Shown here in pieces: positions 1-63,581 of a stretch of 64,000 nucleotides of DNA (the stretch's first letter is position 1; every line of letters starts with the position of its first letter). The stretch comes from Candidatus Saccharimonadales bacterium (GTDB lineage Bacteria; Patescibacteriota; Saccharimonadia; Saccharimonadales; DATKHC01), in assembly GCA_038317055.1 (NCBI GenBank), contig JBBQBA010000001.1, positions 280,153-344,152 of the forward strand, in the 5' to 3' direction. Below the pieces are notes generated by a model that saw nothing but the letters and a program-made list of their open reading frames with translations, did no database searches and was not told where the DNA came from. Both the position numbers and the translations under genes were made by a program.

Positions 1-190
1 ATGCAAGAAGCAATAATAATATTTGTGAACTGTGCCTATATGAGGCAACTTTATATAACGATCTTGCGGGTTCTTGGCCTAAACGTGCTCTTCGTTTTAG
101 TTCAATTATAGGAATCGACTTATATACTTTCGCAACACTAATAAATAGAATAACCAGCAAGGCTAAAATAACTATCAATATTACGTACAT
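1..190 (-). CDS. partial CDS (5' end only, runs off window): membrane protein N-terminus
   Basis: Hand translation from ATG at 190..188 (minus) gives MYVILIVILALLVILFISVAKVYKSIPIIELKRRARLGQEPARSLYKVASYRHSSQILLLLLA..., open to position 1. It has a hydrophobic N-terminal helix followed by a basic segment. It is truncated and absent from the supplied ORF track. Function is not assignable. Confidence 0.3.
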   Translation of the reverse strand, partial: MYVILIVILALLVILFISVAKVYKSIPIIELKRRARLGQEPARSLYKVASYRHSSQILLLLLA

Positions 191-499
191 GAAATCAGTC
201 TAACACGCTAAAGCATTAGATATTAATTACCTTTTAATACTTTATAAATTGTTGCCATCTTGGACGGCGAATCTTAACTTCCACTTTGGCACCTCGTGAG
301 GGTATTATTTTTATTTTTATGGGCATAGCCCACACCTCCCACTCAAAATGTTCCACCATAAAACATCTTGAGATTTTTTTATTATGTTTTTGTCTTCAAT
401 ACAGAGAAACAACTCTGCTTTTTAGAAGTACTTATATTTTTACATAAGCGTTAAGTAAAGTCAATTGATTTTATAGACTCAATTTTCTTATAAAAACAT

Positions 500-3094
500 T
501 TACTGAGGCTTTTTATATTGTCTATATAAGTAGAAGCCAAATGTACTATTACTATTACATTGCCCTATCGACTGACATACTGCTGTGTCATGTTTTGCGT
601 ATTCCAAGTATGCGTCTACTTTGTGATCTAATAAAGTGCCTGAAACATTTACAGGAAAGTCGCGAATAGGATAACCAATATAGTAAGTAAGTGGAATTAT
701 AACCTGTCCCGCATATTGCTGTTGCTCGTAGTGTGTATAAGCAGTCTTAACCAACCTTCCAACAGCTATATGATCGACATGATCGGGAAATGTAGTGCTT
801 AAATAGGAAGCTTGAGTCCTAATTTCAGAAGGTTGATAAACGTGCATAATGGTCGTTATGGCAGATGTCAATTGTGGCAAGCTATAATAAGATTGCCCAT
901 CAACTGAATTAATAGTTTTAATTTTACTCTGCTCTAAAGCTTGCAGACTCTGGTAATGATTCGATTGAAAACCTTCGCCCTTTAGATTACCGTCTGGTAA
1001 ATGCATAAATATCAACGAGATTTCAGTGTTGTGTTTTGGATTAGCAATAGTAACAAATTCATTTTTGCTAATTTGAACAATTTTTTGGATCCATATACCT
1101 TTATAGCCAATCATTTGAGAATAAGCTGCTTCCGCACCTTGCTCACGAGCTAACCAATAAAACTTACCGGTTCCCGCATCCCCTGCAGTTAAATACACTG
1201 TTCGAATACAGTCTTTATTAGCTATGCTATTTAGTAAATCTGGACTCATAAATAATAGATCGTCATCCTGATGAGCAACAATATTCATGACAGTAGGTTT
1301 TGGACATACTGTATTTAATAGACCACTCAAATTTATCGGGAAAATAGTAGCTAGTAGCTGGGGATTATAAGTAACTGGAGCTGGTTTCTTGGTCTGTATA
1401 CCATTATCATAGAACAACAGTAGTTCAGTGGGCTTACTTAAGCTGCCCTCAATAAGAGTACTTGAGTTTGGTTTACCGTATTGCTTAATTACCTGGTTTA
1501 CATTACATGTCGGGTAATCTGTAAGGCTCTTATCAAATGATATTAGATATGCAAAACTGTGTTTAGTAAGATTAGTTTGCCAAGCTAAGCTTGTTAGAGT
1601 ATTTCGCGGATCCGTACAGCTAGCAAGTGGCATTACATTAAAGCTACTTTTAGTTATTAGTTTTGTTGGTATAACTCGCCAATAATCACCAATAAGTGTA
1701 TCAATTTGGTGATGATTTAATATTTCAGCAATTTGACTATCTCGTTGGTTTACGTCTTTGACGGCAGATGAATCTTCGTGGTAAAAATGTAGTGTATTAA
1801 ATGCTCCTAGAAATATTCCAATAGTAATAATTGCTCCGACAATAACTACATCTCGAGCCAACCATTTCCGGCTTCGTAGATAAACTGCTCCAGAAATAAA
1901 CAAAGTAAAAAATGAAATTGTCAGATATCTAGAATCCACAGCATAGTCGTGCTGAGTGAATATAAATAAACCTGCAGCTATAACTGTCGTCCATATGAGC
2001 ATGATTGCTAAACTATTAGATTTTGTAAAACGAGATTGCATTTTTATTTTTGAGAAACTATTTCTTGTAACTACAAATACTGCATAAATAGCGGCGACAA
2101 ATAATACTGCATTAATTACAATGGCTAATCCGCCAAGGCTAAATAAACCATGTAATGTTTGACTTGGCACATTTCTTAAAATTGTGTAGTTGCTTGCTGG
2201 ATTTGCTCCAAAGTTAGTTAGTAATCCAAAAAATCCATAAACAATTCCGAGAGCTAAAGAGTGAACATTTTGGACTAAACCATACGGGCTATTGGATGAC
2301 TGACCAATAATATTAGTAAAGTGAGTTACATTTATTATCCACAATATTAACGATGCAAGAGTTGCACCGACTAAACTTGTGATGATCCAGTTTACGGAAA
2401 TGCTAACGTAATGCCATTTTTTGATGAGACTATAAATTATTAGCGCTAAGAATGCTCCGGCAATACTTAGGCTTAGGAATAATTTATCACTTGCAAAAAG
2501 TATTGATAAACCAAGTATGGCAAATATTAAATTCCTGTCTTTAATCCTTGGCGTCTTGGTTATTAAAATTAGGCTTCCGATATAAAGCAGATATTCTAAA
2601 TTACGAGTAGATATCATAGCCATATTTGCCGGTAACAATGCACCAGCATAAGGTTGAGCTGGGATACTAATAAGAACAGATGCTAGCGCCAAACAAAGGG
2701 TACCGAAAACCAATGGTCTATTTTCTATTTTATGGAGTATATAAGTAAATGCAGCGACAGTTATTGTAACTATTATGACCGTGAATGCAGTGATCATTAC
2801 AGGGGAAGAACCCAGTAATCTAATCAATAAGAAGAAAGGCCATTTTAGTAAAAACGTATGTTGGCCTGGTATTAATGCACCATGAAATGTCTTAGAATGT
2901 TCAAATAACAATGTGTTTACAAGTTGGTCAGCATTTCCTTGCTGTACTTTGGCACTTAATAATGACCAAAATATAGTTGTCGCAAATAGTAATATTAGTG
3001 AGCCAATTACATATGCTTTAAGAAATACTGGTAGCTTAATTAGGTCATTAAAACTGTTTAAAAGCTTTGTGCTTTTCTTATTTAGATCGACCAT
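500..3094 (-). CDS. polytopic membrane protein (GT-C/ArnT-like N-terminal half) fused to a C-terminal PIG-L/LmbE-family de-N-acetylase domain
   Basis: 864-aa ORF with many hydrophobic helices through about aa 440. The C-terminal third carries the PIG-L signature series VAHQDDDLLFMSPD (AHPDDE-type), VYLTAGDAG, HLPDGNL and FPDHVDHIAVG (HxDH). Confidence 0.75.
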   Translation of the reverse strand: MVDLNKKSTKLLNSFNDLIKLPVFLKAYVIGSLILLFATTIFWSLLSAKVQQGNADQLVNTLLFEHSKTFHGALIPGQHTFLLKWPFFLLIRLLGSSPVMITAFTVIIVTITVAAFTYILHKIENRPLVFGTLCLALASVLISIPAQPYAGALLPANMAMISTRNLEYLLYIGSLILITKTPRIKDRNLIFAILGLSILFASDKLFLSLSIAGAFLALIIYSLIKKWHYVSISVNWIITSLVGATLASLILWIINVTHFTNIIGQSSNSPYGLVQNVHSLALGIVYGFFGLLTNFGANPASNYTILRNVPSQTLHGLFSLGGLAIVINAVLFVAAIYAVFVVTRNSFSKIKMQSRFTKSNSLAIMLIWTTVIAAGLFIFTQHDYAVDSRYLTISFFTLFISGAVYLRSRKWLARDVVIVGAIITIGIFLGAFNTLHFYHEDSSAVKDVNQRDSQIAEILNHHQIDTLIGDYWRVIPTKLITKSSFNVMPLASCTDPRNTLTSLAWQTNLTKHSFAYLISFDKSLTDYPTCNVNQVIKQYGKPNSSTLIEGSLSKPTELLLFYDNGIQTKKPAPVTYNPQLLATIFPINLSGLLNTVCPKPTVMNIVAHQDDDLLFMSPDLLNSIANKDCIRTVYLTAGDAGTGKFYWLAREQGAEAAYSQMIGYKGIWIQKIVQISKNEFVTIANPKHNTEISLIFMHLPDGNLKGEGFQSNHYQSLQALEQSKIKTINSVDGQSYYSLPQLTSAITTIMHVYQPSEIRTQASYLSTTFPDHVDHIAVGRLVKTAYTHYEQQQYAGQVIIPLTYYIGYPIRDFPVNVSGTLLDHKVDAYLEYAKHDTAVCQSIGQCNSNSTFGFYLYRQYKKPQ

Positions 3095-3162
3095 AAATTT
3101 ATAATTGGACCCTTCATGATTAGCTGAAATACTGTATTAATCCAGAAAGTCTCATTTGATTA

Positions 3163-3606
3163 CTAGTAAATAATTTCATTGGTGTTAGCGTTAGCAAAAA
3201 TATGCGTCCGGTATAGATAAAAATTCCAAATTGTAGTTATCGCAATAGCAACTGTGCGAATTAAAACTGCTGGCAGAATGTGGGCAAATAGCTTTGCTAA
3301 AAGAATTGTGAACCCAAAATTGAAAATAACTAAAACTAAGAACGCTAGTGTTTGAGTCAATAGTACTTTTCTATGAATTCTTTTATCGTTAAAAGTAACT
3401 AGTTTTTGGAGCATAAATGATAGTAATAAACCTACCCAAAAACTGACACCAATTGAAATTATACTGTTATAGCCAATTTTTTGCATTACATAGATCACAA
3501 GCAATTCAAACAAATACACGCTACCACCGATTAAAATATATCGGTGTAGTTCGTTTCTAGCTATCACTATCTTTAGCCTCAATTCCCAGAGATGAATCAT
3601 GGTCAA
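3163..3606 (-). CDS. GtrA-family small membrane protein (candidate lipid-linked sugar translocase)
   Basis: 147 aa with 4 predicted TM helices. It has GtrA-like C-terminal motifs (...LQKLVTFNDKR..., ...WNFYLYRTHIF). It overlaps the 3' end of the upstream GT2 gene by about 50 nt, consistent with co-transcription. Confidence 0.6.
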   Translation of the reverse strand: MTMIHLWELRLKIVIARNELHRYILIGGSVYLFELLVIYVMQKIGYNSIISIGVSFWVGLLLSFMLQKLVTFNDKRIHRKVLLTQTLAFLVLVIFNFGFTILLAKLFAHILPAVLIRTVAIAITTIWNFYLYRTHIFANANTNEIIY

Positions 3607-4540
3607 TTATATACAATGGCCGTCCTCGTGTTTGGCTTTGAATATGAGATATATAAAGTGACAAGATTCCTTGGGACGAAAGTATTATACCAACTAAAAA
3701 TAGTATTAATATCCCTAACATTGCAGAGCCCGTAAAATTCCAATTCCATGGGTCATTTAATAATATCTGTTCAATGAACACCGTTATACCTAAGATAAAC
3801 GATATACCCGTAATAATTACACCTAAGTAACCAAATAAATAAAGTGGTGTAGGCGTTAAAGATACAAAACTATTTGCTGCTAATTTAAATAATTTATTTT
3901 TTCCATACGAAGCAGTTCCGTTAACTCTAGCACTTGCATGGAAATGTATATATGCGCGTTTGAAACCAAGCCAATCAATTAAACCTCTAGTAATTCGATC
4001 TGATTCAGTTAGTTTCAGAAATTCATTACGTACAACTTTATCAATTAACCGATAGTCTGTGGATCCGGGAATTAATTTTTGCTTGGTTAGACTATTAAAT
4101 ATAGAGTAAAACAACTTAGAACCAATTTGCTTAAAAAGACCTTCTCCTTCATTACCAACCCTTATACCAACTACGACTTTAGCTCCATCTTCCCAGCTTC
4201 TAATAAAATTAGGAATTAAGTTTACGGGATGTTGACCGTCTCCATCTAACATTATTACTGCATCACCCCGCGATGCTGCAATTCCAGCTGAAAGCGCATT
4301 TTCTTTACCGAAATTTCTAGACAATTGGAGGTATTTTATCTTTGTATTATTTTTATGCCAGGTTGAGATCGTTTCGAAAGTATTATCTGTGCTACCGTCA
4401 TCACAGTAAATTAACTCATAAGTATAGTTTTCCAGATTTTTTAGTATTTCAACTATTTGATTGTGAAACACATTTAATCCTTCTGCCTCATTGAAAATGG
4501 GCACAACCACAGACACCATAGATTTCTTTAAATCACTCAC
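3557..4540 (-). CDS. GT2 polyprenyl-phosphate glycosyltransferase (GtrB/ArnC/DPM1-like) with C-terminal TM helices
   Basis: Motifs VSVVVPIFNEAEGL, YCDDGSTDNT and MLDGDGQHP, plus two C-terminal hydrophobic helices. This is the typical bactoprenol-phosphate hexose synthase architecture. Confidence 0.8.
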   Translation of the reverse strand: MSDLKKSMVSVVVPIFNEAEGLNVFHNQIVEILKNLENYTYELIYCDDGSTDNTFETISTWHKNNTKIKYLQLSRNFGKENALSAGIAASRGDAVIMLDGDGQHPVNLIPNFIRSWEDGAKVVVGIRVGNEGEGLFKQIGSKLFYSIFNSLTKQKLIPGSTDYRLIDKVVRNEFLKLTESDRITRGLIDWLGFKRAYIHFHASARVNGTASYGKNKLFKLAANSFVSLTPTPLYLFGYLGVIITGISFILGITVFIEQILLNDPWNWNFTGSAMLGILILFLVGIILSSQGILSLYISHIQSQTRGRPLYIIDHDSSLGIEAKDSDS

Positions 4541-4686
4541 TTTGAGGCTAAGTATAACAGATGTAATGTCTAATAAACTAACAGTATTTCAACATGATTT
4601 TTTATGGAAACATAATGATAATGCTTTTTTGATATGTAGGCTTATCAAGGTAAACTATTAACAGGTTAGAATTTAAAAAAATACAA

Positions 4687-6384
4687 ATGCACGAAAGCGT
4701 CTTTACAGCCCTAAGTATCGTTATAGTCATCGCATCCGGAATGGCACTGTTGATGAGGCTTTTAAAACAGCCCTTAATAATTGGCCATATCCTAACTGGA
4801 ATAGTCGTTGGGCCTCTGGTTTTTCACGTTCTTAACTCTGTTAATACTATTCAAACTTTTTCTAACATTGGTATAGCCTTATTGTTATTTATAATCGGAC
4901 TCGGGCTTAATCCTAGAGTTATTAAAGAAGTCGGTAAAATTGCTGCTGTTGCTGGTTTTATTGAAGTTGGAATTATTTCATTTGTAAGTATTATAGTGGC
5001 AAAAGAGTTGGGCTTTAATTATAAACAAGCAATTTTTCTAGGTATAGCTCTATCATTTAGTAGTACTATTATTATTTTAAAACTCTTAAGCGATAAGAAA
5101 GAAAGTAACCGCCTATACGGCAAAATAACTATTGGAATTCTTATAATTCAAGATCTTGTAGCTGTGGTTGCTCTATTATTTGTAACCTCACAAGGGAATA
5201 ATTCAACCATTTCTCTATCTGAACTAGATTGGTTAGCTGTCAAAGGACTACTAGCTGCTCTACCACTCTTTCTTATTGGTGGATATGTGTTGCCAAAATT
5301 TAGTAAATTTATTTCTAGCTCTCAGGAATTCTTATTTTTATTTGCAATCGGTTGGGGTTTTGGAGCTGCTGCACTTTTTCAAGGAATTGGATTTTCTTTA
5401 GAGATTGGCGCATTACTAGGTGGTGTAGCCCTGGCTTCACTTCCGTTTAGTCAAGAAATAAGTGCTAGATTGAGACCACTTAGAGACTTTTTTATTGTTG
5501 TTTTCTTTATATCTCTCGGCAGTCGGCTGACTTTTTCTACCATCGGAACAGAACTTAAACTTCTGATAATTTGTGCGCTTATAGTCATAATTTTAAAACC
5601 CTTTGTAGTCTTACTAACTATGAGTGTTATGAGATACACAAAACAAACTAGCTTTAAAACCGCAATTAGTTTGGGTCAAATAAGTGAATTCTCATTAGTT
5701 TTAGTTCTTTTAGGAAATTCTGCGGGTATAGTTCCAGCAAGCATGGTTAATGTAATTACATTTATTGCATTAATAACAATCGCAAGTTCTACCTACCTTA
5801 TTAATTATGCAAACGGCATATACAAAGTAGTAGAGAAACCATTAAGACTACTCGAAAGAGCCAGAACTCATACTGAGAGCGCCCTTTCCAAACATCGATA
5901 TGAACTAGTCCTGTTTGGTTATAGAAAAGGAGGACAGGAATTTATTCAGTTATTTAAAAGAATGAAAAAAGATTTCGTTGTTGTAGATTACGACCCAGAA
6001 GTAATTGAGACAATGGAACAGCAAAAAATTAATTGTATATACGGTGATGCTACTGACATTGAGTTACTAGAAGAAATTGGAATAGAAAAATCTAAACTAA
6101 TAGTTTCGGCTGTAACAGATCATAATGCAAACGTATTCTTGCTAAAACTTATTACTAAGATAAACCCACGAGCGATTATTATTGTTCATGCGGAATCAAT
6201 TAAAAAAGCTACAGAATTATATGATCTTGGAGCAAGCTATGTAGTCATGCCACATTACATTGGTAGCGATAATATTGCTGCATTTATTAGGAAGAGTGAG
6301 CTTAAAAAGAGTGAGTTCATTAAATATCAGGAGAAACACAAAGCTTATATTCAAAAGCACTATGCGCTTGATACAGAAGCATAA
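4687..6384 (+). CDS. CPA2 cation:proton antiporter with C-terminal RCK/TrkA-N domain (KefB/KefC-like)
   Basis: 565 aa. The N-terminal ~380 aa is a multi-TM Na+/H+-exchanger-type domain. The C-terminal part is a Rossmann-like RCK domain (ELVLFGYRKGGQEF...VVVDYDPE...YGDATD). Confidence 0.8.
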   Translation: MHESVFTALSIVIVIASGMALLMRLLKQPLIIGHILTGIVVGPLVFHVLNSVNTIQTFSNIGIALLLFIIGLGLNPRVIKEVGKIAAVAGFIEVGIISFVSIIVAKELGFNYKQAIFLGIALSFSSTIIILKLLSDKKESNRLYGKITIGILIIQDLVAVVALLFVTSQGNNSTISLSELDWLAVKGLLAALPLFLIGGYVLPKFSKFISSSQEFLFLFAIGWGFGAAALFQGIGFSLEIGALLGGVALASLPFSQEISARLRPLRDFFIVVFFISLGSRLTFSTIGTELKLLIICALIVIILKPFVVLLTMSVMRYTKQTSFKTAISLGQISEFSLVLVLLGNSAGIVPASMVNVITFIALITIASSTYLINYANGIYKVVEKPLRLLERARTHTESALSKHRYELVLFGYRKGGQEFIQLFKRMKKDFVVVDYDPEVIETMEQQKINCIYGDATDIELLEEIGIEKSKLIVSAVTDHNANVFLLKLITKINPRAIIIVHAESIKKATELYDLGASYVVMPHYIGSDNIAAFIRKSELKKSEFIKYQEKHKAYIQKHYALDTEA

Positions 6385-7027: not shown

Positions 7028-8167
7028 TTATTTTTTTGACTTTCTAACTCTACAACCGCATGATCCGAAAACATGAGTCTTAGTTACGGTGGTCCTGACG
7101 TTAGTGGCAGTACAATGTGGACATTTCTTTGATATAAAAGTACATTCTGTGTCCTCATCAGAGTCATCATCACCATAACCTGCTTCTTTTAACCCAAATT
7201 CTTTTGTAAAACCCTCTGCAATTAAAGTTGCACCACAGGCACTAAAAGATTTACCTAAATATCTAGCGTTTTCACCATTACGTTCTAACTCTCGAATAAG
7301 TATATTAGGATCAAGCTGAGAAAGTTGTGACCTAAGTATTTGACTATTAATTTCTTCATGCTCAAATCGTTTCTGCATAGTAGCGGCAGCATTGTACATA
7401 ATTGTATCTGACAGTTCACCAGCATGTTGTAGTCGAACACAAGCTTCGATTAAGTCTCTTTGCCTACATACAAAATCGTAAGTATTACGAATATCGGCAG
7501 TCTTTCTTCCGGCAAACCATTTACCTCCAAATTGTTTTGTAAGACTTTGGTCATAAGTTTGCCTTAAATCACCAACTAGTTGTAACTGATCACCCTCAGA
7601 TAATTCTGAACGAATACGTTGTCCCAGTAGTTCTCCTGTTTCTGTTTCCTTTCCAAATTTTCTATAAATTTCTTCAAGAGCTTTTCTATTAGATCCATCA
7701 AGGCTAAGAGAATGCATTTTTATTTTGCCGTTTGGGTGTCTATTAAAGACACGCAACATTGTTTGTTTACGAGTAACGTTATAGCCACCAATATCTTTTG
7801 TGGCGTGCATTAATTCTTCAGGATAATCCGATACAACAATCATAGTGTTGGGACCATAACCTCTAGCCATTTCTATTAATTCGGTACGTTCTTCACGTTC
7901 AATTCGGCTTCGACGAACATTGAACCACATATCCGGATTTTGCCTGACGTATTTTTTTGCATGATCTAAGCCTTTTTGAGTAACTTCATCCAAACCTCGG
8001 CCGTCCGGACCATAAAGGTCAATACCATCAAATAATAAATCAAATTCTGTATGCATTGCACCATCAACTAGTTCACTAAACTGTGTTTCTAGATCATATT
8101 GAGCTTCAAGTTTTGTTTCTTCTATTTGTAAGAATTCTATTCGGACAGCTGAGCTTTCCACTAACAC
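7028..8167 (-). CDS. hypothetical acidic protein with C-terminal Cys-rich zinc-ribbon-like tail
   Basis: 379-aa ORF with a GTG start as given by the track; the start is uncertain. The C-terminus reads ...DDDSDEDTECTFISKKCPHCTATNV...GSCGCRVRKSKK (C-x7-CxxC ... CxC). I recognise no family. Confidence 0.5.
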   Translation of the reverse strand: MLVESSAVRIEFLQIEETKLEAQYDLETQFSELVDGAMHTEFDLLFDGIDLYGPDGRGLDEVTQKGLDHAKKYVRQNPDMWFNVRRSRIEREERTELIEMARGYGPNTMIVVSDYPEELMHATKDIGGYNVTRKQTMLRVFNRHPNGKIKMHSLSLDGSNRKALEEIYRKFGKETETGELLGQRIRSELSEGDQLQLVGDLRQTYDQSLTKQFGGKWFAGRKTADIRNTYDFVCRQRDLIEACVRLQHAGELSDTIMYNAAATMQKRFEHEEINSQILRSQLSQLDPNILIRELERNGENARYLGKSFSACGATLIAEGFTKEFGLKEAGYGDDDSDEDTECTFISKKCPHCTATNVRTTVTKTHVFGSCGCRVRKSKK

Positions 8168-23633: not shown

Positions 23634-26039
23634 ATGACATCACTAAATAAATTAATTCACCGAATATATTACACAAGATTTATTCGTTATTTGTTTGTAG
23701 GATTTAGTACATTTGCACTTGATCTAGGTTTACTTTATATTCTACATGGTCGATTTAAACTTGCTCTACCGATAGCAGTTTCTATTGCTTATTTATTTTC
23801 AGTTTTTTATAACTTCACCCTTAGCTTAAGATGGACATTTACCAATAAAGAAAAGAAAAGTCTATATCTTCACCTTACTCAATATTTAATTCTATTGGGC
23901 TTTAATTATCTTTTTACACTTTTCTTTGTAAGTATTGTTGGCCAACATATCAATTATGCTATTGCAAAAACAATTGCAGCTGCATTCCAGGTACTTTGGA
24001 CCTATCCAATATATCGATATATTATTTTTAAACCACCAATTCCTAAAAATTCACTAAAAAAAGATCAGAAACCATATGATATTGAAGAAAAATTAATTTC
24101 CATTGCTATAAATCTATACAAAAGTATTTGGTTTTTTCCAGTCATATGTATTGTAATGCTGTGTATCCTTACAGGATTAAAAATTAGCGGAAGTTCTACT
24201 GGAAATTATTACAAGGTATTAAATGGTGGTAATGCTCATGATAGTCATTTAATTGCAGGTGAACCTCGTTCAATTAGGTCAGATGAATGGGAATGGGAAT
24301 CTAATATGTTGTTAGCCCAATCTGCGACTAATTACCCAAGTACAAACTCAAATATAGGCGACAAACAAGATATGCAAATTATTGTAGATGTTCCATATAA
24401 GAGTTGGTCTGTAGTATTCAAACCACAAAATTTATCATTTTTCATATTACCTTTTTCATATGCGTTTGCCTTTAAGTGGTGGCTCTTATCGTGCTTACTA
24501 GTAATAAGTACATACTTTTTTATACTAATATTGCTGCCGAAAAAGAGACTAATTGCGGCAACATTAGCAACCTGTTTATTACTAAGCCCATTTATTCAAT
24601 GGTGGTATCAAACAATAACAATTGTACCGATCATATTTAGTTTTATGATTGCTATTTCACTCATTAATTTGTGGAAAGCTAAACAAAAACATAAAATTTG
24701 GTGGACTGTGTTGCTAACTTATTCTCTGGCAAGCTTCACGGTAGTTTTATATCCACCTTTCCAAATCCCATGTTTAATAGCAATATCTGTTTTTTTGTTA
24801 GGTTATTTTATAGATAAAAAATATTTAACCAAGAATTTAATTTTAGCTAATTTTAAATATATTATAGTTGCGATTGTTATTTTTGGCGCAATAACTCTTG
24901 GATTTGTAGCAAATAATAAAATAGCAATTCATGCTACGCAGAATAGCATTTATCCCGGGAAAAGAATCTCAACTAGTGGATATTTTGATTCTAGAATATT
25001 TCTTGGTAACTTTCTTGAATCTCAACTCCAGTTAACAAGACATGCAAAATATTATGTCGCTAATCAAAGTGAAGCTTCAAATTTCTTATTATTGGCACCT
25101 TTTCTTACACTCCCAGCAGTATGGTATATATTCCAGACAAAACGATATTCCAAGAAAATAGATTGGGCACTCTTACTTGTTACGATTATGTTCTTATTAT
25201 TTATGGTTCGCTTATTTATTCCTGGAACAGATTCATTATTTAAAGCATTTTTCCTAGATTCGGTACCAAATAATAGGCTCATTATAGGTATTGGTTTAAT
25301 TGGTTTCATTCAAATAATTTTAATTATTAGACATTTATTAAATAATAAAGTTAAAAATATCCGGTTAATAGCAATTCTTGGATCATTAACGGCATTAATA
25401 TGTAATTTGTACATTGGGTTTTCAACACGACATTATTACCCTGGATATGTTCATAATATAGGTTTGATAGTGGTATTGGCTTTATTCCCTGTAGTTATTA
25501 TTTATCTGCTTCTAAATAAAAAATTTGTATTATCAGCATTAGTATTCTTAGTTTTTTCGGCCGGATCAGCTAGTTTAGTAAATCCTATATATAGAACTCC
25601 CGGTCCATTATACAATTCAAATATAGTTAATTCAGTTCATCAAATATATCTGAAAGATAAGTCCGCAAAATGGGCTGTAGTAGATGATTTGATATTTGAA
25701 AACTTACCTGCATCAGCAGGAGCTCCTTCAATTACAGGTACATACGCATATCCACAATTAGGTCTTTGGGGTAAAACTAATCTAACTAAAAGTCAAAATA
25801 TAACATTTAACAGATTTGCTCATACTATTGTACATTTTAGTAATAATGAAGTGTCCCTAATACTTAAACAGCCTGATTTTTTTGAAATATATGGATCACC
25901 TTGCTCAGAATTCTTTAAAAAAGAAAATGTAAAATACTTCATTGCTGAAAAACAATATAGTCAAACTTATAGTTGCTTAACGTTGAAGAAGACGATTTCA
26001 TATCCTAACTTGAAGTTCTATATCTTAGAGAAAAACTAA
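23634..26039 (+). CDS. GtrA-like domain fused to a large polytopic GT-C-like membrane protein (paralog of 34434..36389)
   Basis: The N-terminal ~130 aa are GtrA-like (FIRYLFVGFSTFALD...LRWTF...YRYIIF). A multi-TM body follows, with the first-loop acidic motif PRSIRSDEW. It aligns by eye with ORF 34434: SGSS.G...PR.IRSDEW...DVPYK.WS.VFKP.NL.FF.LP...AFA.KWWL. Confidence 0.6.
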   Translation: MTSLNKLIHRIYYTRFIRYLFVGFSTFALDLGLLYILHGRFKLALPIAVSIAYLFSVFYNFTLSLRWTFTNKEKKSLYLHLTQYLILLGFNYLFTLFFVSIVGQHINYAIAKTIAAAFQVLWTYPIYRYIIFKPPIPKNSLKKDQKPYDIEEKLISIAINLYKSIWFFPVICIVMLCILTGLKISGSSTGNYYKVLNGGNAHDSHLIAGEPRSIRSDEWEWESNMLLAQSATNYPSTNSNIGDKQDMQIIVDVPYKSWSVVFKPQNLSFFILPFSYAFAFKWWLLSCLLVISTYFFILILLPKKRLIAATLATCLLLSPFIQWWYQTITIVPIIFSFMIAISLINLWKAKQKHKIWWTVLLTYSLASFTVVLYPPFQIPCLIAISVFLLGYFIDKKYLTKNLILANFKYIIVAIVIFGAITLGFVANNKIAIHATQNSIYPGKRISTSGYFDSRIFLGNFLESQLQLTRHAKYYVANQSEASNFLLLAPFLTLPAVWYIFQTKRYSKKIDWALLLVTIMFLLFMVRLFIPGTDSLFKAFFLDSVPNNRLIIGIGLIGFIQIILIIRHLLNNKVKNIRLIAILGSLTALICNLYIGFSTRHYYPGYVHNIGLIVVLALFPVVIIYLLLNKKFVLSALVFLVFSAGSASLVNPIYRTPGPLYNSNIVNSVHQIYLKDKSAKWAVVDDLIFENLPASAGAPSITGTYAYPQLGLWGKTNLTKSQNITFNRFAHTIVHFSNNEVSLILKQPDFFEIYGSPCSEFFKKENVKYFIAEKQYSQTYSCLTLKKTISYPNLKFYILEKN

Positions 26040-26108
26040 TAATTTGCTATGATTATAGAAGTTTAATGGACTTATTAATTATTTGTTGACTGGAAGAAAA
26101 AGAGATAT

Positions 26109-26807
26109 ATGAATATGAAAATTGCTTTTGTCATACCAGCATATAATGAGGGTTCAGTTATTGGCATCGTTATTAAAGATTTAAATAAATCGTTGATTTC
26201 AAAAAAGATGAATTTTGAAATCATTGTTGTGAACGATGGTTCTAACGATAACACTTCAACAGTTGCCAGAAATTCTGGGGTTCATGTTATTGACCATATC
26301 CTTAATACTGGAAGTGGAGGTGCTACAGCTACTGGTCTAAGTTATGCTCAACAAAATAATTTTGATATTGCAGTAACTCTAGATGCTGACGGTCAGCATC
26401 ACCCACAAGACGTAATTAAGGGTATTGAGATAATGGCCAAGGATGGTGGAGATTTATTGATAGGTAGTAGATTAATGAATCCTGAAGGAATGTCTAAAAT
26501 AAAAATATTTGGCAATAAAGGTTTAAGCACTATAACAAATATTTTATTCGGAGTTCATGTAACTGACTCACAGTCAGGATTGCGCATATTTTCAAGAAAT
26601 ACTTTAGATGTACTAACTTGGAAAACTAGTGGCTTTGAATACTGTTCTGAGATGCTTTGGCGCGCAAAGCAACTTGGCCTAGAAATTAGAGAGTATCCGA
26701 TTAAAGCAATATACACCGAATATTCACAAGGTAAAGGTCAAAATAATTGGAATTCAATAAACATAATTAAAACTTTATTACAAAGAAGAATAATGGAGCT
26801 TTTTTAG
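26109..26807 (+). CDS. GT2 polyprenyl-phosphate glycosyltransferase (DPM1/GtrB-like, soluble form)
   Basis: KIAFVIPAYNEGSVIG, VVNDGSNDNT, LDADGQHHPQD and TDSQSGLR. At 232 aa it has no C-terminal TM helix. Confidence 0.8.
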   Translation: MNMKIAFVIPAYNEGSVIGIVIKDLNKSLISKKMNFEIIVVNDGSNDNTSTVARNSGVHVIDHILNTGSGGATATGLSYAQQNNFDIAVTLDADGQHHPQDVIKGIEIMAKDGGDLLIGSRLMNPEGMSKIKIFGNKGLSTITNILFGVHVTDSQSGLRIFSRNTLDVLTWKTSGFEYCSEMLWRAKQLGLEIREYPIKAIYTEYSQGKGQNNWNSINIIKTLLQRRIMELF

Positions 26808-27164
26808 GTGAGTAGGTATTTAGTTCTAATAATACTTAACACTCCATTAATTATGGTTGCTATTTTGAGTGCAACTGTTTCATATAAATTAAAAAAAATA
26901 GACCGTCGACGTTATATTTTGCGACTGATACTTTGGTTAGGAATATTTGCCGGACTTGTATTCGCTCAACCTATATACCGCTTATTGTATTCCAATAATC
27001 TAACCCAAACCGAAGCACTTAGTTTATTCGATGTAATACAAATAACTGGTATAATTATTACTCTATTTATAGCTAATCAAGCCTATTTGAAGGCAGATGT
27101 CCTTGAAAGAAGAGTTCAAGATCTACACCAAGAATTATCTATTCGTCTTTCAAAAGATAAATAA
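26808..27164 (+). CDS. small membrane protein (DUF2304-like partner of GT2)
   Basis: 118 aa with a GTG start directly after the GT2 stop. It has three to four TM helices and a C-terminal amphipathic tail (LERRVQDLHQELSIRLSK). As I recall, this is the architecture of DUF2304 proteins that accompany GT2 genes. Confidence 0.5.
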   Translation: MSRYLVLIILNTPLIMVAILSATVSYKLKKIDRRRYILRLILWLGIFAGLVFAQPIYRLLYSNNLTQTEALSLFDVIQITGIIITLFIANQAYLKADVLERRVQDLHQELSIRLSKDK

Positions 27165-34080: not shown

Positions 34081-34434
34081 GTGTCAAAAATAATTCTAGC
34101 GCTTTATGTAGTTACCACCTCCCTAGGATTAATTGCCCTTAAATTAGGTACAAAAACTGGGTTACCAATAAGTTACGTCGCAAATAAACTTCATTATAAT
34201 TTCAATGCATATGCTATCTCCGGGTTAGTTTTATATGGTTTAAGTTTTTTGTTATACATGTATCTAATTTCGAAAAATGATTTAGGATATATTATCCCAG
34301 TAGCTGCGTCATTTGTTTATATACTTGTTTTCGTCTCTTCCTATTTTGTTTTTCATGAAGTATTTACTCCTCTAAAGATAGTTGGCATATTCCTAATAAT
34401 GTCCGGTTTGATATTCATTAATTTACACAAGTAA
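34081..34434 (+). CDS. small 4-TM DMT/SMR-like membrane protein (ArnE/ArnF-like candidate lipid-sugar flippase)
   Basis: 117 aa with four evenly spaced hydrophobic helices. It has a GTG start and abuts the GT-C-like gene: its TAA stop (34432-34434) overlaps that gene's ATG (34434-36) by one base, TAATG. Confidence 0.5.
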   Translation: MSKIILALYVVTTSLGLIALKLGTKTGLPISYVANKLHYNFNAYAISGLVLYGLSFLLYMYLISKNDLGYIIPVAASFVYILVFVSSYFVFHEVFTPLKIVGIFLIMSGLIFINLHK

Positions 34435-36389
34435 TGCATAAACATATTAAAAGGTTTTATAAAAGTATTTGGCTTTTTCCGCTAGTTTTATTAGTTCCAC
34501 TTATTTTTTTATCAGTTAACAAAATTAGCGGGAGTTCGATTGGGACTTTACATAATATTCTGTATGGCAATCAAAATGACCCAAATTTGTTAGCTAATAA
34601 ACCACGAGATATACGTTCGGATGAATGGTTAGTAAATACTCAATTAACAGTTGCTCAATATAATAGTAGTTTTCCTAAGATAAACCATAATATTGGAAAC
34701 GGTGAAGATGTTTCAGTCCAAGATGTACCTTATAAAGATTGGAGCATCGTTTTTAAGCCACACAACTTAGTGTTCTTCACGCTGCCACTCGAAAATGCTT
34801 TTGCCCTGAAATGGTGGTTAATGGGCTATTTGCTTATCGTTAGTAGTTACTTTTTTATACTTACCCTGTTACCGGGAAGAAAAAAACTGGCAATACTATT
34901 ATCTCTTTCTTTGTTCTTTAGCGCATTTGTTCAATGGTGGTATGCGTATGGGACACTCGGTTCACTTTATTATTCACTGTTCATTGCGATAAATGTTATT
35001 TATCTTTGGAAACAAAAAACACTAAAAAAGAAGCTAATATTAGCAGCACCTCTGATTTATTTGATATCTTGCTTTAGTTTAGTTTTGTACCCTCCATTCC
35101 AAATAGCTTGTGGTCTTGTATTGGCAGTATTTTTAATCAGCTACGGTATTCAAGAAAATAAAAGCTGGAATCGAAGTACTTTAATTAGTAATATTTCAAT
35201 TGCATTAGGCGCAGGGTTAGTTGCTGGTTTAATTTTTGGGGCATTTTTATTTACACGATCTGAAGTTATACAGTCAATAAACCACACTGCTTATCCAGGA
35301 ACTAGAATATTAAAAAGCGGCGGCATACAACCAGACCATTTCCTCTCATCACAACTAGGGCATCAATTTATTTCTGATAACAAAACAGCCAGCTATTTAA
35401 TAGATAACAAGGCTAGATCGAACCAAAGTGAAGCATCTAATTTTCTACTGTTAGCACCATTTTTATTTATACCTTCTGCCTTTTTAATTTACATAGATAA
35501 GAAAAAAAAGAAACCCACTGACTGGCCATTACTTGGATTATTGATTCTGTTTCTTGTTTATTTATTAGAACTATTCGTTAGACAGTTTTCACAGTTATCT
35601 AGAGTATTACTATTAGATAAAGTTGGATCTGGTAGAGTTCTCATTGGTGTAGGCTTACTCAACTTTATGTTACTGGTTTTATTTATACGAAACTTGTCTT
35701 CTAGAAAATTTAATTTCCCAGTTGTTCCATCAATAATTTATTTTTTAATATTAGTAATTATTGAGCTTGCTGTAAATTTACATGCTCACTATAATTTTGG
35801 TACATTTATAGGCCTAAAATTAGCCATACTACTATCTATTCCTCTCCCGTTAATTACCTACATGATCATAAAAAAACAATTTATTTTAGCTGCATCAATA
35901 TACTTTATTTTCTCAATATACATTGGTATAAAGGTTAATCCACTATACAAAGGACTAGCTATAATTCAAAAGAACCCAATAAGTATCACTATAAAAAAAG
36001 TTTCTTCTGGTTCTAATCTTCGATGGGCAAATGAAGGTGGTTATGAAGAGAATTTAGCGATAATAAATAATAAGCCTTCTATTTCCAGTGTCTACGATTA
36101 CCCACAGTTTAATATGTGGCAATCAATACCTAATACTCCTAAACAAATATATAATCGATATGCACATGTTGGTGTTGAGGTTTACAACGATAATTCAACT
36201 CCGACTAAATTAAATCTACTTACTCCAGATAGTTTTACGCTTCAAACAAGTAGCTGTAGCAAGTACTTACGGAATGAAAAAGTTGGCTTCGTATTAACGG
36301 CAACTATCCTTACCGGAAATTGTATTAAGTTAAAAGATACATTATCATTTCCAATTACAACGCTATATATTTATCAGATACAAAATTAA
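34434..36389 (+). CDS. polytopic GT-C-like membrane protein (paralog of 23634..26039, no GtrA fusion)
   Basis: 651 aa and multi-TM. It shares motifs with the 801-aa paralog: SGSSIG...PRDIRSDEW...DVPYKDWSIVFKPHNLVFFTLP...AFALKWWL, then LYPPFQIACGL, SEASNFLLLAPF and INHTAYPGTR. Confidence 0.6.
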   Translation: MHKHIKRFYKSIWLFPLVLLVPLIFLSVNKISGSSIGTLHNILYGNQNDPNLLANKPRDIRSDEWLVNTQLTVAQYNSSFPKINHNIGNGEDVSVQDVPYKDWSIVFKPHNLVFFTLPLENAFALKWWLMGYLLIVSSYFFILTLLPGRKKLAILLSLSLFFSAFVQWWYAYGTLGSLYYSLFIAINVIYLWKQKTLKKKLILAAPLIYLISCFSLVLYPPFQIACGLVLAVFLISYGIQENKSWNRSTLISNISIALGAGLVAGLIFGAFLFTRSEVIQSINHTAYPGTRILKSGGIQPDHFLSSQLGHQFISDNKTASYLIDNKARSNQSEASNFLLLAPFLFIPSAFLIYIDKKKKKPTDWPLLGLLILFLVYLLELFVRQFSQLSRVLLLDKVGSGRVLIGVGLLNFMLLVLFIRNLSSRKFNFPVVPSIIYFLILVIIELAVNLHAHYNFGTFIGLKLAILLSIPLPLITYMIIKKQFILAASIYFIFSIYIGIKVNPLYKGLAIIQKNPISITIKKVSSGSNLRWANEGGYEENLAIINNKPSISSVYDYPQFNMWQSIPNTPKQIYNRYAHVGVEVYNDNSTPTKLNLLTPDSFTLQTSSCSKYLRNEKVGFVLTATILTGNCIKLKDTLSFPITTLYIYQIQN

Positions 36390-55187: not shown

Positions 55188-55796
55188 TTAAGGCTGACCT
55201 ATAACATATTGTATGTCTAGTTTAGATGTGTCATAACCCTGGCTCTTCATCCATGCTTGTGCCTCTTGCTGACCACTAGAATCTGGAGCGGTAATGTAAA
55301 TGATGGGTTTATTAGCGTTTGCACCCGCCGGGGTGCCATAGTCTATACGATAAGCGAAGTCCGGACCGGTGAAAGGAAGTATTTTTATTATTGGTGCATT
55401 TTCAGATGACTGCTGATATAGAACGTCGTTATTATATCCAGAAATTCCTTCGGCTATGCTTTCGTCACCCGGGTGCGCAGAATACCAGTTACTAGTACTC
55501 GCAGAGTTTGAAGACAATGCCAAACCTACCTGGATACTATCCCCCTTCTTAACTGTTACGGTTTTTGAGCTTAATGCAAAACCGTTCATTGTTCCGATAA
55601 CAGTATATGTGCCTGGCTTAACCCTGATTGTGCCGGGCGAGACTACTTTGTTGTTTATTGTCAGTCTTGCCACAGAAGGTGCAATTACTAACTTAACTTT
55701 CACTGATAAAGACCTGGAATGGAGTACAAAAACTAACATAAAAATTAAAATAAATATCAAGCTAACTATGATATATATTTTTTTCTTGTTATCCAT
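55188..55796 (-). CDS. membrane-anchored protein with PEGA-like beta domain
   Basis: 202 aa with an N-terminal TM (IYIIVSLIFILIFMLVFVL). The segment LTINNKVVSPGTIRVKPGTYTVIGTMNGFALSSKTVTVKKGDSIQV resembles a PEGA domain. It is the last gene of the T4SS-like operon. Confidence 0.45.
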   Translation of the reverse strand: MDNKKKIYIIVSLIFILIFMLVFVLHSRSLSVKVKLVIAPSVARLTINNKVVSPGTIRVKPGTYTVIGTMNGFALSSKTVTVKKGDSIQVGLALSSNSASTSNWYSAHPGDESIAEGISGYNNDVLYQQSSENAPIIKILPFTGPDFAYRIDYGTPAGANANKPIIYITAPDSSGQQEAQAWMKSQGYDTSKLDIQYVIGQP

Positions 55797-60686: not shown

Positions 60687-60706
60687 AAATTAAATGATTA
60701 TTCCAA

Positions 60707-62623
60707 TCATACAGGAGGAAGTGGTGGTGCTTGCTGCGGAACATCGAAAGTACCTTGAGTTTGTGTATTTATTTGTTGTTGCTGACCTGGCTGAGGGGTT
60801 GGTGTGGTACTTATTAACCCGGACTCTGTTGGACTAGCAATAATCTGGATATGAACATGGTTCTGGCCTGCAAAAAATAAACCCTGACCTACCGGAAATT
60901 GACTTAATCGTTTCTTCTCTTCACTTGTTAATTTAAAAACATCTGCTAGTAAATCTACCGCAGTTGGGGATTGCTTAAGGAGTAATTGCATAGACGCATT
61001 GGCAACGATTGCTCTTCCCATCCTAGAACCAATAAAATCTTCAACATCTTGGCTGATAGTCGTTATTCCAAGGTTATATTTACGAGCTCTTTTAGCAAGA
61101 CTAAACATGAAGTTTGCCGAGTCTTCATATTTCATTAACTGCCAGGCTTCATCAATTATTAACATTCGTCGTTTCTGGTCTGACTTAGTTTTGTTCCAGA
61201 TGTAGTTTAATACTATATACATAGCTACAGGTCTTAATTCGTCTTCAAGGTCCCTGATATTGAAAACAACCATTGGGTTATTAATATCAATATTACTCTG
61301 TTGGGAGAATATTCCGGCGAATGTACCCGAAGTGTATTTTCTTAATCTTTGAGCAAGCTGCGGACCAGTCCCACCCATGTGTAGTAAGGTGTCATAAAGA
61401 TCAGTAATAGTAGGCGGTGTTGAGGTATGAGTTAGAGGATCGTTTGTGATTCCTGCCTTCGCGTAAGTTTGAATAAGAGCAGCATCAAGATCTGCTTCTT
61501 CAACTGGACTTAGAGCTGGAATCGATGCTGCACTTGAACCTAACATTTGAACTTGAGCTCCACCCATCATAAGCCTTAACAGACCATGTAGGGTGATCAG
61601 ATTAGTTCTAAGAGCATTCTCTGCTTCCTCGGTGTCAATTACTTCAGGAAGATCAAACGGGTTAATTCTAACGTTGGAGTTAAGGCTCAACCTAACATAA
61701 GCACCACCGACGGCTTCGGACATCTTTTGGTATTCATTTTCCGGGTCAATAATAAATATCTCAGTGCCGAACATCATGCTTCTAAGCGCTTCGAGCTTAA
61801 CCGCAAAAGACTTACCGGCTCCAGATTTAGCGAATACTACTGAGTTACTGTTCTCTAAACTAAATCTATCGAATAATACTAGCCCGGAGTTATGCATATT
61901 AACACCGTACAATATACCTTTATCGTCACTTAAGTTTGCACTTGTAAATGGAAAACTGGTGCTTAGGGCTCCAGTTCCGAAGTTTCGTCTAATTTGTAAC
62001 TGGTCAGTAAATTGCGGCAAACTACTATTTAGAGCTTGTTCTTGCTGGGCAGTTGCTGGTTTTGAATATACTAATTGTTGTCCAAGAAGTGTCTCTATCT
62101 TGTGGGAAACTATCTCTAGCTCGTCTAGGCTACCGGCATAAATCGTGAAATAGAATCCAAGCCTAAAGAAGTGTTCTTCACCTACCTGAAGCTTATCTCG
62201 CATTTCCTCGGCATCGGTGATGGCTGCCTGTTTTGCTGGATCTCTAACACGTCCTTTTTCAGCATCTATTTGAAGACCTGCTTCAAGTTGACTCACTTTC
62301 TTACGTAGGTTTTCAAGCACAACTTGACCATTAACAGGATAGATGAACAAAGATATATCCATTACTTCGTCAATGTTAATCATGCTACTTAACCAGCCAG
62401 TGTATATTTGTCTTGGATATCCATAGACATAGTAGCTTCGTGCAAAACGTGTACCAATTTGGAAATGAGTGCTTTGAAATTCAATTGAACTAGGTGCTAT
62501 AAAATCACGAAGTGCAGTCACGCCTCGATTAAATGCTTCATTTACCTCGGCTTGTTCTCGAAGCTGCTGCTGCTGTACAACATTAATTGGATCAACTTTA
62601 GTTTTTCTTTTGCCTAGTGCCAT
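60707..62623 (-). CDS. virB4: VirB4-family T4SS ATPase (Tn916 Orf16/ConE/TrsE-like), lacking the usual N-terminal ~230 aa
   Basis: FIAPSSIEFQS..FQIG..FARSYYV.GYP, Walker A FAKSGAGKSF, Walker B RRMLIIDEAWQL and TTISQDVEDF. Size is 638 aa. Confidence 0.8.
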   Translation of the reverse strand: MALGKRKTKVDPINVVQQQQLREQAEVNEAFNRGVTALRDFIAPSSIEFQSTHFQIGTRFARSYYVYGYPRQIYTGWLSSMINIDEVMDISLFIYPVNGQVVLENLRKKVSQLEAGLQIDAEKGRVRDPAKQAAITDAEEMRDKLQVGEEHFFRLGFYFTIYAGSLDELEIVSHKIETLLGQQLVYSKPATAQQEQALNSSLPQFTDQLQIRRNFGTGALSTSFPFTSANLSDDKGILYGVNMHNSGLVLFDRFSLENSNSVVFAKSGAGKSFAVKLEALRSMMFGTEIFIIDPENEYQKMSEAVGGAYVRLSLNSNVRINPFDLPEVIDTEEAENALRTNLITLHGLLRLMMGGAQVQMLGSSAASIPALSPVEEADLDAALIQTYAKAGITNDPLTHTSTPPTITDLYDTLLHMGGTGPQLAQRLRKYTSGTFAGIFSQQSNIDINNPMVVFNIRDLEDELRPVAMYIVLNYIWNKTKSDQKRRMLIIDEAWQLMKYEDSANFMFSLAKRARKYNLGITTISQDVEDFIGSRMGRAIVANASMQLLLKQSPTAVDLLADVFKLTSEEKKRLSQFPVGQGLFFAGQNHVHIQIIASPTESGLISTTPTPQPGQQQQINTQTQGTFDVPQQAPPLPPV

Positions 62624-62624
62624 T

Positions 62625-63554: not shown

Positions 63555-63581
63555 AAAACCTCAGATTGTTTAGTAGCCAGA

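Follow-up and report, generated by a model that had tools for sequence, protein, structure and literature searches.

An outward-facing PIG-L domain fused to an ArnT-like GT-C membrane protein: a three-gene unit of Saccharimonadales that probably decorates the cell surface with an amino sugar

The window analysed here, a stretch of 64,000 nucleotides from the genome of a Candidatus Saccharimonadales bacterium (946,526 bp in 4 contigs, completeness 99.93%), carries near its beginning three co-oriented genes which encode a family 2 glycosyltransferase (GT2) of 327 amino acids, a GtrA-family protein of 147 amino acids and a membrane protein of 864 amino acids that joins a glycosyltransferase of the GT-C fold to a PIG-L/LmbE-type domain. 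A preliminary description of the sequence had recognized the trio of GT2, GtrA and large membrane protein, and its positions agree exactly with the list of open reading frames (ORFs), in which all three lie on the minus strand. Our analysis identifies the domains of these proteins and their folds, finds the catalytic motifs intact and places the PIG-L domain outside the membrane. Judged from sequences and the structural model, the unit probably equips the cell surface with an amino sugar that carries a positive charge. The parts of the unit are ordinary and their assembly is unusual; the assembly is widespread within one lineage, and its function is what we infer from the features laid out below.

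The C-terminal domain of the large protein matches the Pfam model PIG-L (PF02585) at residues 603-785 with an E-value of 2.6e-13 and 51 bits as compared to a cut-off of 28.2, covering profile positions 1-128 of 129; compared with the profile, the domain has about 55 inserted residues. Sequence searches against solved structures gave nothing useful for either half of the protein: the C-terminal part of 424 amino acids yielded 0 matches at E <= 1, and a profile of 51 sequences, namely the 864-residue protein and 50 homologues with 45-56% identity, yielded only 4 chance matches to G protein-coupled receptors (E 0.04-0.07). Comparison of folds was therefore needed, and an AlphaFold2 model was built on the 51-sequence alignment (mean predicted local distance difference test, pLDDT, of 89.2; predicted template modelling score, pTM, of 0.86). 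In this model the domain adopts the Rossmann-like alpha/beta fold of LmbE proteins. VIA-align matches it to diacetylchitobiose deacetylase (Z 17.0, root-mean-square deviation 3.2, 195 residues aligned), to MshB (Z 15.9) and BshB (Z 15.8) and to the hydratase GalB (Z 15.7), and Foldseek against the PDB likewise returns LmbE-fold deacetylases for the back part of the protein.

The motifs AHQDDD (607-612), LTAGDAG (635-641) and HVDH (772-775), as given in the preliminary description, are present in the translation, and residues H608, D610, D611, D612, T636, G638, G641, D771, H772, D774 and H775 are invariant in the 51 sequences. Enzymes of the LmbE-like superfamily carry the motif HXD1D2 plus a further H, in which, according to a review of the superfamily, the metal is held by both histidines and D2 while D1 serves as general base (PMC4101496). 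By analogy, we propose that H608 and D611 are zinc ligands, that D610 is the general base and that H775 is the third ligand, the preference for H775 over H772 being an analogy as well. A mis-assignment of the catalytic residues, which had been considered a possible flaw, is ruled out by the invariance of HXDD and H in 51/51 sequences and by their fit to the published motif. In addition, cysteines 597, 629, 840 and 846 are conserved in 50-51 of the 51 sequences.

On which side of the membrane this domain lies had been left undecided and is settled by computation: the domain is extracytoplasmic, as the GT-C architecture, the positive-inside bias, the conserved cysteines and the exported stand-alone relatives all agree. 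In the model, DSSP assigns 11 transmembrane (TM) helices to residues 1-461, with the N-terminus inside and the C-terminus outside. The density of lysine plus arginine is 0.278 in the inside loops versus 0.049 in the outside loops, and it is higher inside in 51/51 sequences even though the inside loops are only half as long. Past residue 440 the highest hydropathy over 19 residues is 1.39, so that no further TM helix is predicted. The C-terminal domain of ArnT is periplasmic; since the alignment with ArnT runs through residue 564, residues 462-570 should likewise lie outside, with no later span. Six cysteines follow the last TM helix (493, 530, 597, 629, 840 and 846) and recur in 50-51 of the 51 sequences; C493 and C530, both within residues 462-570, are invariant in 51/51 as well as in 37/37 sequences of a wider set. 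This is the pattern expected of an exported, disulfide-bonded region.

The relatives of the PIG-L domain point the same way. Seven of 12 shorter relatives inspected start with a signal peptide or with an N-in anchor right before the HxDD strand, 4 look N-terminally cut, and the remaining one (P0396) consists of GtrA, a fifth TM helix and the PIG-L domain. Among the seven are an Aspergillus protein with 40% identity and two bacterial proteins with lectin-like domains. Stand-alone relatives in Patescibacteria genomes possess an N-terminal hydrophobic anchor at 5/5 loci. Two secreted Aspergillus proteins of 275 amino acids (P0428 and P0435) are 39-40% identical to the PIG-L domain in an alignment that covers 97% of it, and two bacterial proteins of the clade carry discoidin (PF00754) or PA14 (PF07691) domains. 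Taken together, these sequences, with which P0429 and P0430 were noted as well, suggest a clade of exported PIG-L proteins that has members in both bacteria and fungi. The statement in the preliminary description that characterized PIG-L enzymes are soluble or face the cytoplasm agrees with the superfamily review, in which the words 'extracellular' and 'secreted' occur 0 times (PMC4101496). Streptococcal PplD would contradict this statement if it were an extracellular PIG-L enzyme, but it has a CE4 fold (PMC8807736), and the objection falls.

The N-terminal portion of the 864-residue protein, residues 1-570, is by the fold of its model a complete ArnT-like GT-C enzyme. VIA-align superimposes it on ArnT with Z 18.1 and a root-mean-square deviation of 4.7 over 425 aligned residues, the first and last of which are 22 and 564 in the model and 25 and 569 in the ArnT chain; ALG12 (Z 16.8) and AglB (Z 16.0) follow. 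Among the 50 matches listed, every one to a membrane domain is a GT-C enzyme (ALG12, AglB/PglB/STT3, PMT, AftA/B, DPY19, PimE, ALG3 and EmbC). Helical bundles may reach a Z of about 13 by chance, but the ArnT match is well above that level and covers the alpha/beta domain at residues 462-570 besides the helices. Foldseek against the PDB finds ALG9, DPY19, PglB, ALG12 and ArnT for the front part (E 1.2e-4 to 4e-3), and in an ESM-Atlas look-up of residues 1-570 the nearest named clusters partly carry PMT_2 (score 0.96), which we take as a lead only. The proposed GT-C likeness of the N-terminal half thus holds. The proposed C-terminal extension of about 420 amino acids does so in part: about 110 of these residues (462-570) are the GT-C enzyme's own domain, and what remains is a linker of about 26 residues plus the PIG-L domain of about 270.

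By sequence, this GT-C module is a fold member outside any described family. Scans of residues 1-600 with the models of Pfam and NCBIfam gave no match at E <= 0.1, and relatives that lack the PIG-L domain have a Pfam match in 0/23 cases. An exhaustive HMMER search with residues 1-600 against 1.84 billion representatives collected just 268 clusters (at 50% identity), and the GT-C part therefore constitutes a small, self-contained family. Aspartate 56, within an N-A-D-Q motif in the first outside loop right after the helix formed by residues 22-51, is invariant in 51/51 sequences and retained in 35/37 of the wider set; it occupies what we take to be the position of the GT-C catalytic acid in the first loop after TM helix 1. 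Further residues invariant in the 51 sequences are H79, K84, W85, R164, N165, E167, D203, D387, R389 and Y390. The use of a polyprenyl-phosphate-linked sugar donor by the module is indirectly supported, namely by the adjoining GtrB-type GT2 and GtrA genes and by the occurrence of GtrA fusions.

The 327-residue GT2 matches Pfam Glycos_transf_2 (E 2.5e-28) and is similar over its full length to the solved GtrB of Synechocystis, sll0501 (E 4.5e-56, query residues 9-313); it also matches ArnC (E 4e-29, residues 8-313) and DPMS (E 1e-13). Its catalytic domain is followed by a C-terminal membrane segment as in enzymes of this type, and its sequence identifies it as a polyprenyl-phosphate glycosyltransferase of the GtrB/ArnC/DPMS type. 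The 147-residue protein matches Pfam GtrA_DPMS_TM over profile positions 1-117 of 117 (E 1.3e-12) and is a putative flippase for lipid-linked sugars. In some relatives of the large protein, GtrA is joined directly to the N-terminus of the GT-C/PIG-L protein.

Linkage of the three genes was counted at those related loci for which 1.5 kb or more of sequence was available upstream, which left 46 evaluable loci from genomes (8 of 54 were too short) and 56 from metagenomes (4 exact duplicates and 20 short loci of 80 were dropped). Genes for GT2 and GtrA both lie directly upstream and in the same orientation at 27/46 genome and 32/56 metagenome loci, and one partner is found upstream at 11/46 and 20/56, respectively. 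At least one partner is adjacent at 39/46 genome and 53/56 metagenome loci; one genome locus (1/46) has both adjacent downstream on the other strand, and one metagenome locus (1/56) has a GT2 gene elsewhere in the locus. At 84 loci that span 9 kb or more, clustering of the neighbouring ORFs revealed no further conserved partner, none occurring at more than 23/84. The commonest neighbours past the trio are another GT2 (23/84), the origin-region genes for KhpB, YidC, RNase P, DnaA and DnaN (14-19/84) and an ABC-2 transporter (12-18/84), and no conserved sugar-nucleotide gene that could name the sugar, such as one for a 4-epimerase, stands beside the trio in the clustered loci. Elements of these kinds also occur further along in the present window.

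A word-indexed protein search returned 599 matches at E <= 0.001. The best 120 of these are all 819-1089 amino acids long, contain PF02585 and are named only 'PIG-L family' or 'LmbE family' deacetylase; all named relatives belong to Saccharibacteria/Saccharimonadales. The fusion is present in hundreds of metagenome proteins. A sample of the phylum contains a match in 5/401 genomes, all of the same class, and a sample of the same order in 50/301. These 50 comprise 41 full-length fusions, 4 cut or split ones, 4 with PIG-L only and 1 weak match with GT-C only. Identity among the genome matches falls to 31% with the fusion kept. Two genomes of the same family (93% and 99% complete) and one of the same genus (50% complete) have no match, and the module thus is accessory and patchy. 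One of the 41 full-length fusions has an in-frame TAA (G555:C2:34467-36812). At another locus (L063, G645:C10, 4669-7349) the fusion gene is split into abutting ORFs of 361 and 532 amino acids, with intact GT2 and GtrA genes ahead; both cases may reflect decay or assembly errors.

A Pfam scan of 48 family representatives shows how the domains are combined. PIG-L occurs in 0/23 of the proteins of 519-581 amino acids and in 10/10 of those of 815-886, and 8/14 of the proteins of 932-1057 amino acids have GtrA in front and PIG-L behind; P0106, P0305 and P0309 are further GtrA-GT-C-PIG-L fusions, and one protein of 679 amino acids has GtrA and no PIG-L. The forms without PIG-L stop just past the LLFYD strand, at about residue 563 of the query. 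All but one of 10 that were checked lie on contigs of 5.5 to 73 kb, and the length of these contigs indicates that the forms are real. A scan of metagenomes with GT-C queries of this kind gave 80 loci, 66 of them with a PIG-L match and 13 cut by a contig end, and only one (L113) that looks devoid of PIG-L. Two further arrangements were observed. P0396 (471 amino acids) connects GtrA through one extra TM helix to a PIG-L domain and has no GT-C part, and a distant paralogue of 685 amino acids (L062, G409:C1, 6851-9906) combines GtrA with a GT-C-like part and has no PIG-L; the latter shows 27% identity in the tblastn segment and is divergent to a GT2 gene.

How would these proteins work together? 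We propose that on the cytoplasmic side of the membrane the GT2 uses a nucleotide sugar to charge polyprenyl phosphate with an N-acetylhexosamine (HexNAc) and that GtrA assists the transfer of the lipid-linked sugar to the other side. There the ArnT-like GT-C enzyme (residues 1-570) would pass the sugar to an acceptor in the envelope, and the tethered, outward PIG-L domain (residues 597-864) would then strip the N-acetyl group from the newly attached residue to leave a cationic hexosamine. The acceptor would most likely be a wall polysaccharide, for example a rhamnose-type glycan with genes in the same window; the region for dTDP-rhamnose and Wzm/Wzt in that window is what makes a rhamnose-type polysaccharide the most plausible candidate. 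That the unit completes an amino-sugar decoration outside the membrane, in whichever order the two last steps occur, we consider likely. The specific sequence of a three-component glycosylation by GT-A, GtrA and GT-C proteins followed by de-N-acetylation through the fused PIG-L domain is a more tentative proposal, to which we give somewhat less than an even chance. Transfer before deacetylation is weakly favoured by two observations. In GT-C proteins without PIG-L the residues N54, D56, H79, K84, W85, R164, N165, E167, D203, R389 and Y390 are kept in 21/21 sequences, so that the transferase does not look retuned to a deacetylated donor, and the relatives with lectin domains, being soluble, point to glycan-bound rather than lipid-bound substrates of the PIG-L clade.

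Several observations weigh against the proposed pathway. The GT2 reaches no equivalog cut-off of NCBIfam that would name its sugar, as it scores 218 of the 500 bits required for PgfS, its best match and, according to PMC12041528, an enzyme of a pathway that adds N-acetylgalactosamine (GalNAc) in Streptococcus mutans, 125 of 529 for ArnC and 31 of 370 for PpgS. Its closest solved relative is a GtrB-type enzyme whose own choice of sugar is unproven; the HexNAc identity of the sugar is deduced solely from the deacetylase encoded alongside. Nor does every locus have the trio, for neither partner is nearby at 7/46 genome and 3/56 metagenome loci. At the loci of stand-alone PIG-L relatives (L057-L061) a GT2, GtrA or GT-C gene lies within about 7 kb in 0/5 cases, and the clade can therefore work without a GT-C partner. 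Finally, the spacer between the proposed ligands D611 and H775 measures 163 residues versus 97-148 in characterized LmbE-like enzymes (PMC4101496), a difference in keeping with the roughly 55 residues inserted when compared with the Pfam profile.

Some of these points bear on three other explanations, the most serious of which, although we think it unlikely, reverses the order of the last two steps. The PIG-L domain would deacetylate the flipped polyprenyl-phosphate-HexNAc at the outer leaflet, and the GT-C enzyme would transfer the resulting polyprenyl-phosphate-hexosamine. The step is drawn in this way for the galactosamine (GalN) of mycobacterial and actinobacterial arabinogalactan, for which the deacetylase is unidentified, and the founding enzyme PIG-L works on a lipid-linked N-acetylglucosamine (GlcNAc), GlcNAc-phosphatidylinositol (PMC4101496). 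Fusion to a donor-binding enzyme would also hold the deacetylase at the membrane, and the pTM of 0.86 suggests that the domains pack as one body. However, the 11 positions kept in 21/21 GT-C proteins without PIG-L argue against a donor pocket specialized for hexosamine, a membrane lipid is out of reach for secreted relatives that have discoidin or PA14 domains but lack an anchor, and the PIG-L domain follows a periplasmic domain of about 110 residues and a linker and may thus sit far from the membrane.

It is also conceivable, and in our view quite improbable, that the two halves of the protein have unrelated tasks, such that the GT-C enzyme adds the sugar of the GT2, possibly a neutral hexose, and the PIG-L domain is merely tethered and deacetylates another extracytoplasmic glycan, be it the organism's own peptidoglycan, GlcNAc of its wall or the wall of a host bacterium. 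Anchored or secreted members of the PIG-L clade away from trio genes, the occurrence of the clade in fungi, the GtrB-type enzyme as closest solved relative of the GT2 and the GT-C-only forms on long contigs would all fit such a division. Yet the fusion is retained over wide divergence, with 45-56% identity among the 51 aligned proteins and down to the most distant genome matches, both sets of active-site residues are invariant among the 51, and P0396, in which the deacetylase is attached to GtrA in a protein without GT-C, ties it to the lipid-sugar pathway and not to a mere anchor. By far the least probable alternative is that the domain has the PIG-L fold and is no de-N-acetylase, being instead another LmbE-type hydrolase (for example a Mca-like amidase or a GalB-like hydratase) or a module that binds carbohydrate and brings the acceptor into position. 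The structural match to the hydratase, the amidases that PMC4101496 counts among the superfamily, the atypical spacer and insertion, and the failure of sequence searches, even with a profile, to find a PIG-L structure could be cited for it. The full HXDD and H set, invariant in 51/51 sequences, argues for catalysis, however; all characterized LmbE-like enzymes covered there recognize a GlcNAc or glucosamine core (PMC4101496), and the best structural matches are GlcNAc deacetylases (Z 15.8-17.0).

The proposed pathway of transfer followed by deacetylation resembles several known systems and differs from each of them. In the multi-component systems GtrB/GtrA/Gtr-type of Shigella phages, CsbB/GtcA/YfhO, GtlA/GtcA/GtlB and GacI/GacJ/GacK/GacL, a GT2 makes a polyprenyl-phosphate-linked sugar, a GtrA-type protein moves it and a polytopic GT-C enzyme transfers it outside (PMC8035078). 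The three adjacent, co-oriented genes described here match this layout, but their GT-C enzyme has no Pfam model and bears an outward PIG-L domain at its C-terminus; the word 'deacetyl' is absent from PMC8035078 and PMC11127046. The Arn pathway, too, ends with a cationic amino sugar on the envelope. Of all structures, ArnT matches the whole GT-C module best, and ArnC is clearly homologous to the GT2. ArnD of that pathway is a separate NodB-type enzyme that deacylates the lipid-linked donor on the cytoplasmic side prior to flipping. The deacylase predicted here, in contrast, has another fold, lies outside and is fused to the transferase, and the GT2 scores below the ArnC cut-off. NaxD, the corresponding deacetylase of Francisella, belongs to the YdjC family. 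In Francisella, GT2-like synthesis of a lipid donor and GT-C-like transfer by FlmF2/FlmK lead to GalN on lipid A of the envelope (PMC2233673), and NaxD is an N-acetylgalactosamine deacetylase that is a separate protein and is said to act in the cytoplasm (PMC9431647).

The nearest functional analogues of what we propose are such routes to amino sugars, namely those of Arn and Francisella and PpgS/Rv3632/Rv3779 of Mycobacterium and Corynebacterium. In the last, according to PMC9671496 and PMC5964476, a GT2 and a small membrane protein make polyprenyl-phosphate-GalNAc, a GT-C enzyme transfers the sugar, and the final residue on arabinogalactan is GalN with a free amine; the deacetylase responsible and its location are described there as unidentified. 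No fused deacetylase is reported for the actinobacterial GT-C, whereas here the deacetylase is joined to the transferase, and no sequence similarity between the actinobacterial enzyme and our GT-C family was detected among the 268 clusters. The PIG-L domain itself shares its fold (Z 15-17), PF02585 and the HXDD and H residues with the LmbE/PIG-L superfamily, which includes PIG-L, MshB, BshB, diacetylchitobiose deacetylase and teicoplanin deacetylase; the clade described here differs from it in being exported or anchored outside, in its four conserved cysteines and in its longer spacer. Similar in outcome are HexSDF of Clostridioides difficile and GpgSDF of Pseudomonas aeruginosa, which attach HexNAc to membrane lipids and afterwards remove its acetyl group, so that the surface becomes cationic, HexD being modelled to act outside after flipping (PMC10128005), and PplD of streptococci, a TM-anchored extracellular deacetylase of wall-glycan GlcNAc (PMC8807736). 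These systems differ from ours in that they employ a polysaccharide deacetylase or COG3233 protein (the two operons) or a CE4 enzyme (PplD), consist of separate proteins and involve neither a GT-C enzyme nor a polyprenyl-phosphate-sugar route.

Table 1. Features of the three-gene unit; positions refer to the 64,000-nucleotide window.
Feature	Position	Strand	Basis
GT2 gene	3557..4540	-	ORF of 327 amino acids
GtrA gene	3163..3606	-	ORF of 147 amino acids, TTG start
GT-C::PIG-L fusion gene	500..3094	-	864 amino acids plus stop
GT-C membrane module, residues 1-461	1712..3094	-	Helices of the model, fold match, conservation
Extracytoplasmic alpha/beta domain of the GT-C enzyme, residues 462-570	1385..1711	-	ArnT-aligned range, C493 and C530
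Linker, residues 571-596	1307..1384	-	pLDDT <50 at 573-576
PIG-L/LmbE (CE14-type) predicted de-N-acetylase domain, residues 597-864	503..1306	-	Pfam, fold, motif
Divergent intergenic region between GT2 gene and Na+/H+ antiporter gene	4541..4686	.	Position only

The features of the unit are listed in Table 1. The GT2 and GtrA ORFs overlap by up to 50 nucleotides, and 68 nucleotides separate the GtrA gene from the fusion gene. Upstream of the unit lies a divergent gene for a Na+/H+ antiporter, and the region between it and the GT2 gene is presumed to contain the promoter of all three genes. Consensus scans of positions 1-5000 were not above chance, either for promoters (15 found as compared to 23.3 expected) or for terminators (4 found as compared to 2.5 expected). 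Elsewhere in the genome there is a second PIG-L gene (G000:C2:195913-196305, an open frame of 241 amino acids) with a better Pfam match of 98.9 bits, probably an ordinary stand-alone LmbE-type enzyme.

Positions 9516-49115 of the window form an envelope-glycan region of about 40 kb, after which come replication-origin genes with dnaA at 51356. This region encodes a second GtrA, a Wzy_C ligase-like protein, a Bac_transf initiating transferase, proteins of the RmlA/B/C/D type, a UDP-GlcNAc 2-epimerase, Wzm/Wzt with Wzt_C, several GT2 and GT4 enzymes, methyltransferases and GlmS, and the acceptor polymer may originate from it. Within it, a GtrA-DUF7657-DUF7654 protein of 801 amino acids followed by a GT2 of 232 amino acids and an ORF of 118 (23634-27164), and a second DUF7657-DUF7654 protein of 651 amino acids (34434-36389), look from their sequences like additional multi-component glycosylation modules, in which the membrane part belongs to a different family that has no name. 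Nearer to the unit, an ORF of 379 amino acids (7028-8167) without any Pfam match is rich in cysteine towards its C-terminus, where CPHC and CGC motifs occur. At the far end of the window (55796-63968) there are large ORFs, most of them without a Pfam match (903, 309 and 128 amino acids), one of 736 amino acids that matches Beta-lactamase2 weakly and, at 60707-62623, one for a P-loop protein of the TraG/VirD4 kind; this block may represent a secretion or conjugation-type system.

Is the fusion new? The preliminary description had noted that its novelty depended on whether the architecture was already common and characterized. Common it is, being present in 41/301 genomes of the order and in metagenomes, but a characterization was not found: the openly accessible literature, which leaves subscription-only papers outside, yielded no study of a GT-C::PIG-L fusion or of an exported PIG-L enzyme among the titles and opening lines of abstracts that the searches listed. 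The analysis thus brings to light two entities that databases have missed, a GT-C sequence family without a Pfam model and an exported clade of PIG-L/LmbE proteins. That this previously unrecognized clade has been joined, in Saccharibacteria, with a new GT-C family into a single extracytoplasmic machine which both attaches an amino sugar and unmasks it is a proposition which, in our judgement, stands in even balance between holding and failing.

If it is true, the domain would be the first outward-facing LmbE-type de-N-acetylase, and the unit would provide a working model for the deacetylation step in decorations that depend on polyprenyl-phosphate-HexNAc, such as the GalN of arabinogalactan. 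Of the lipid-carrier routes known, those of Arn and Francisella rely on a separate enzyme in the cytoplasm to take off the acyl group, and for actinobacterial GalN the enzyme is unidentified. A transferase fused to an outward deacetylase of a different fold would be a third solution, and one that can be assayed directly. Cationic amino sugars of the envelope alter surface charge and thereby, in known cases, resistance to cationic antimicrobials, phage adsorption and recognition by hosts. Saccharibacteria live attached to other bacteria. In view of this lifestyle and of the patchy occurrence of the module within the order, we suggest that the surface decoration it is predicted to make is a plausible factor in the contact of these bacteria with their hosts.

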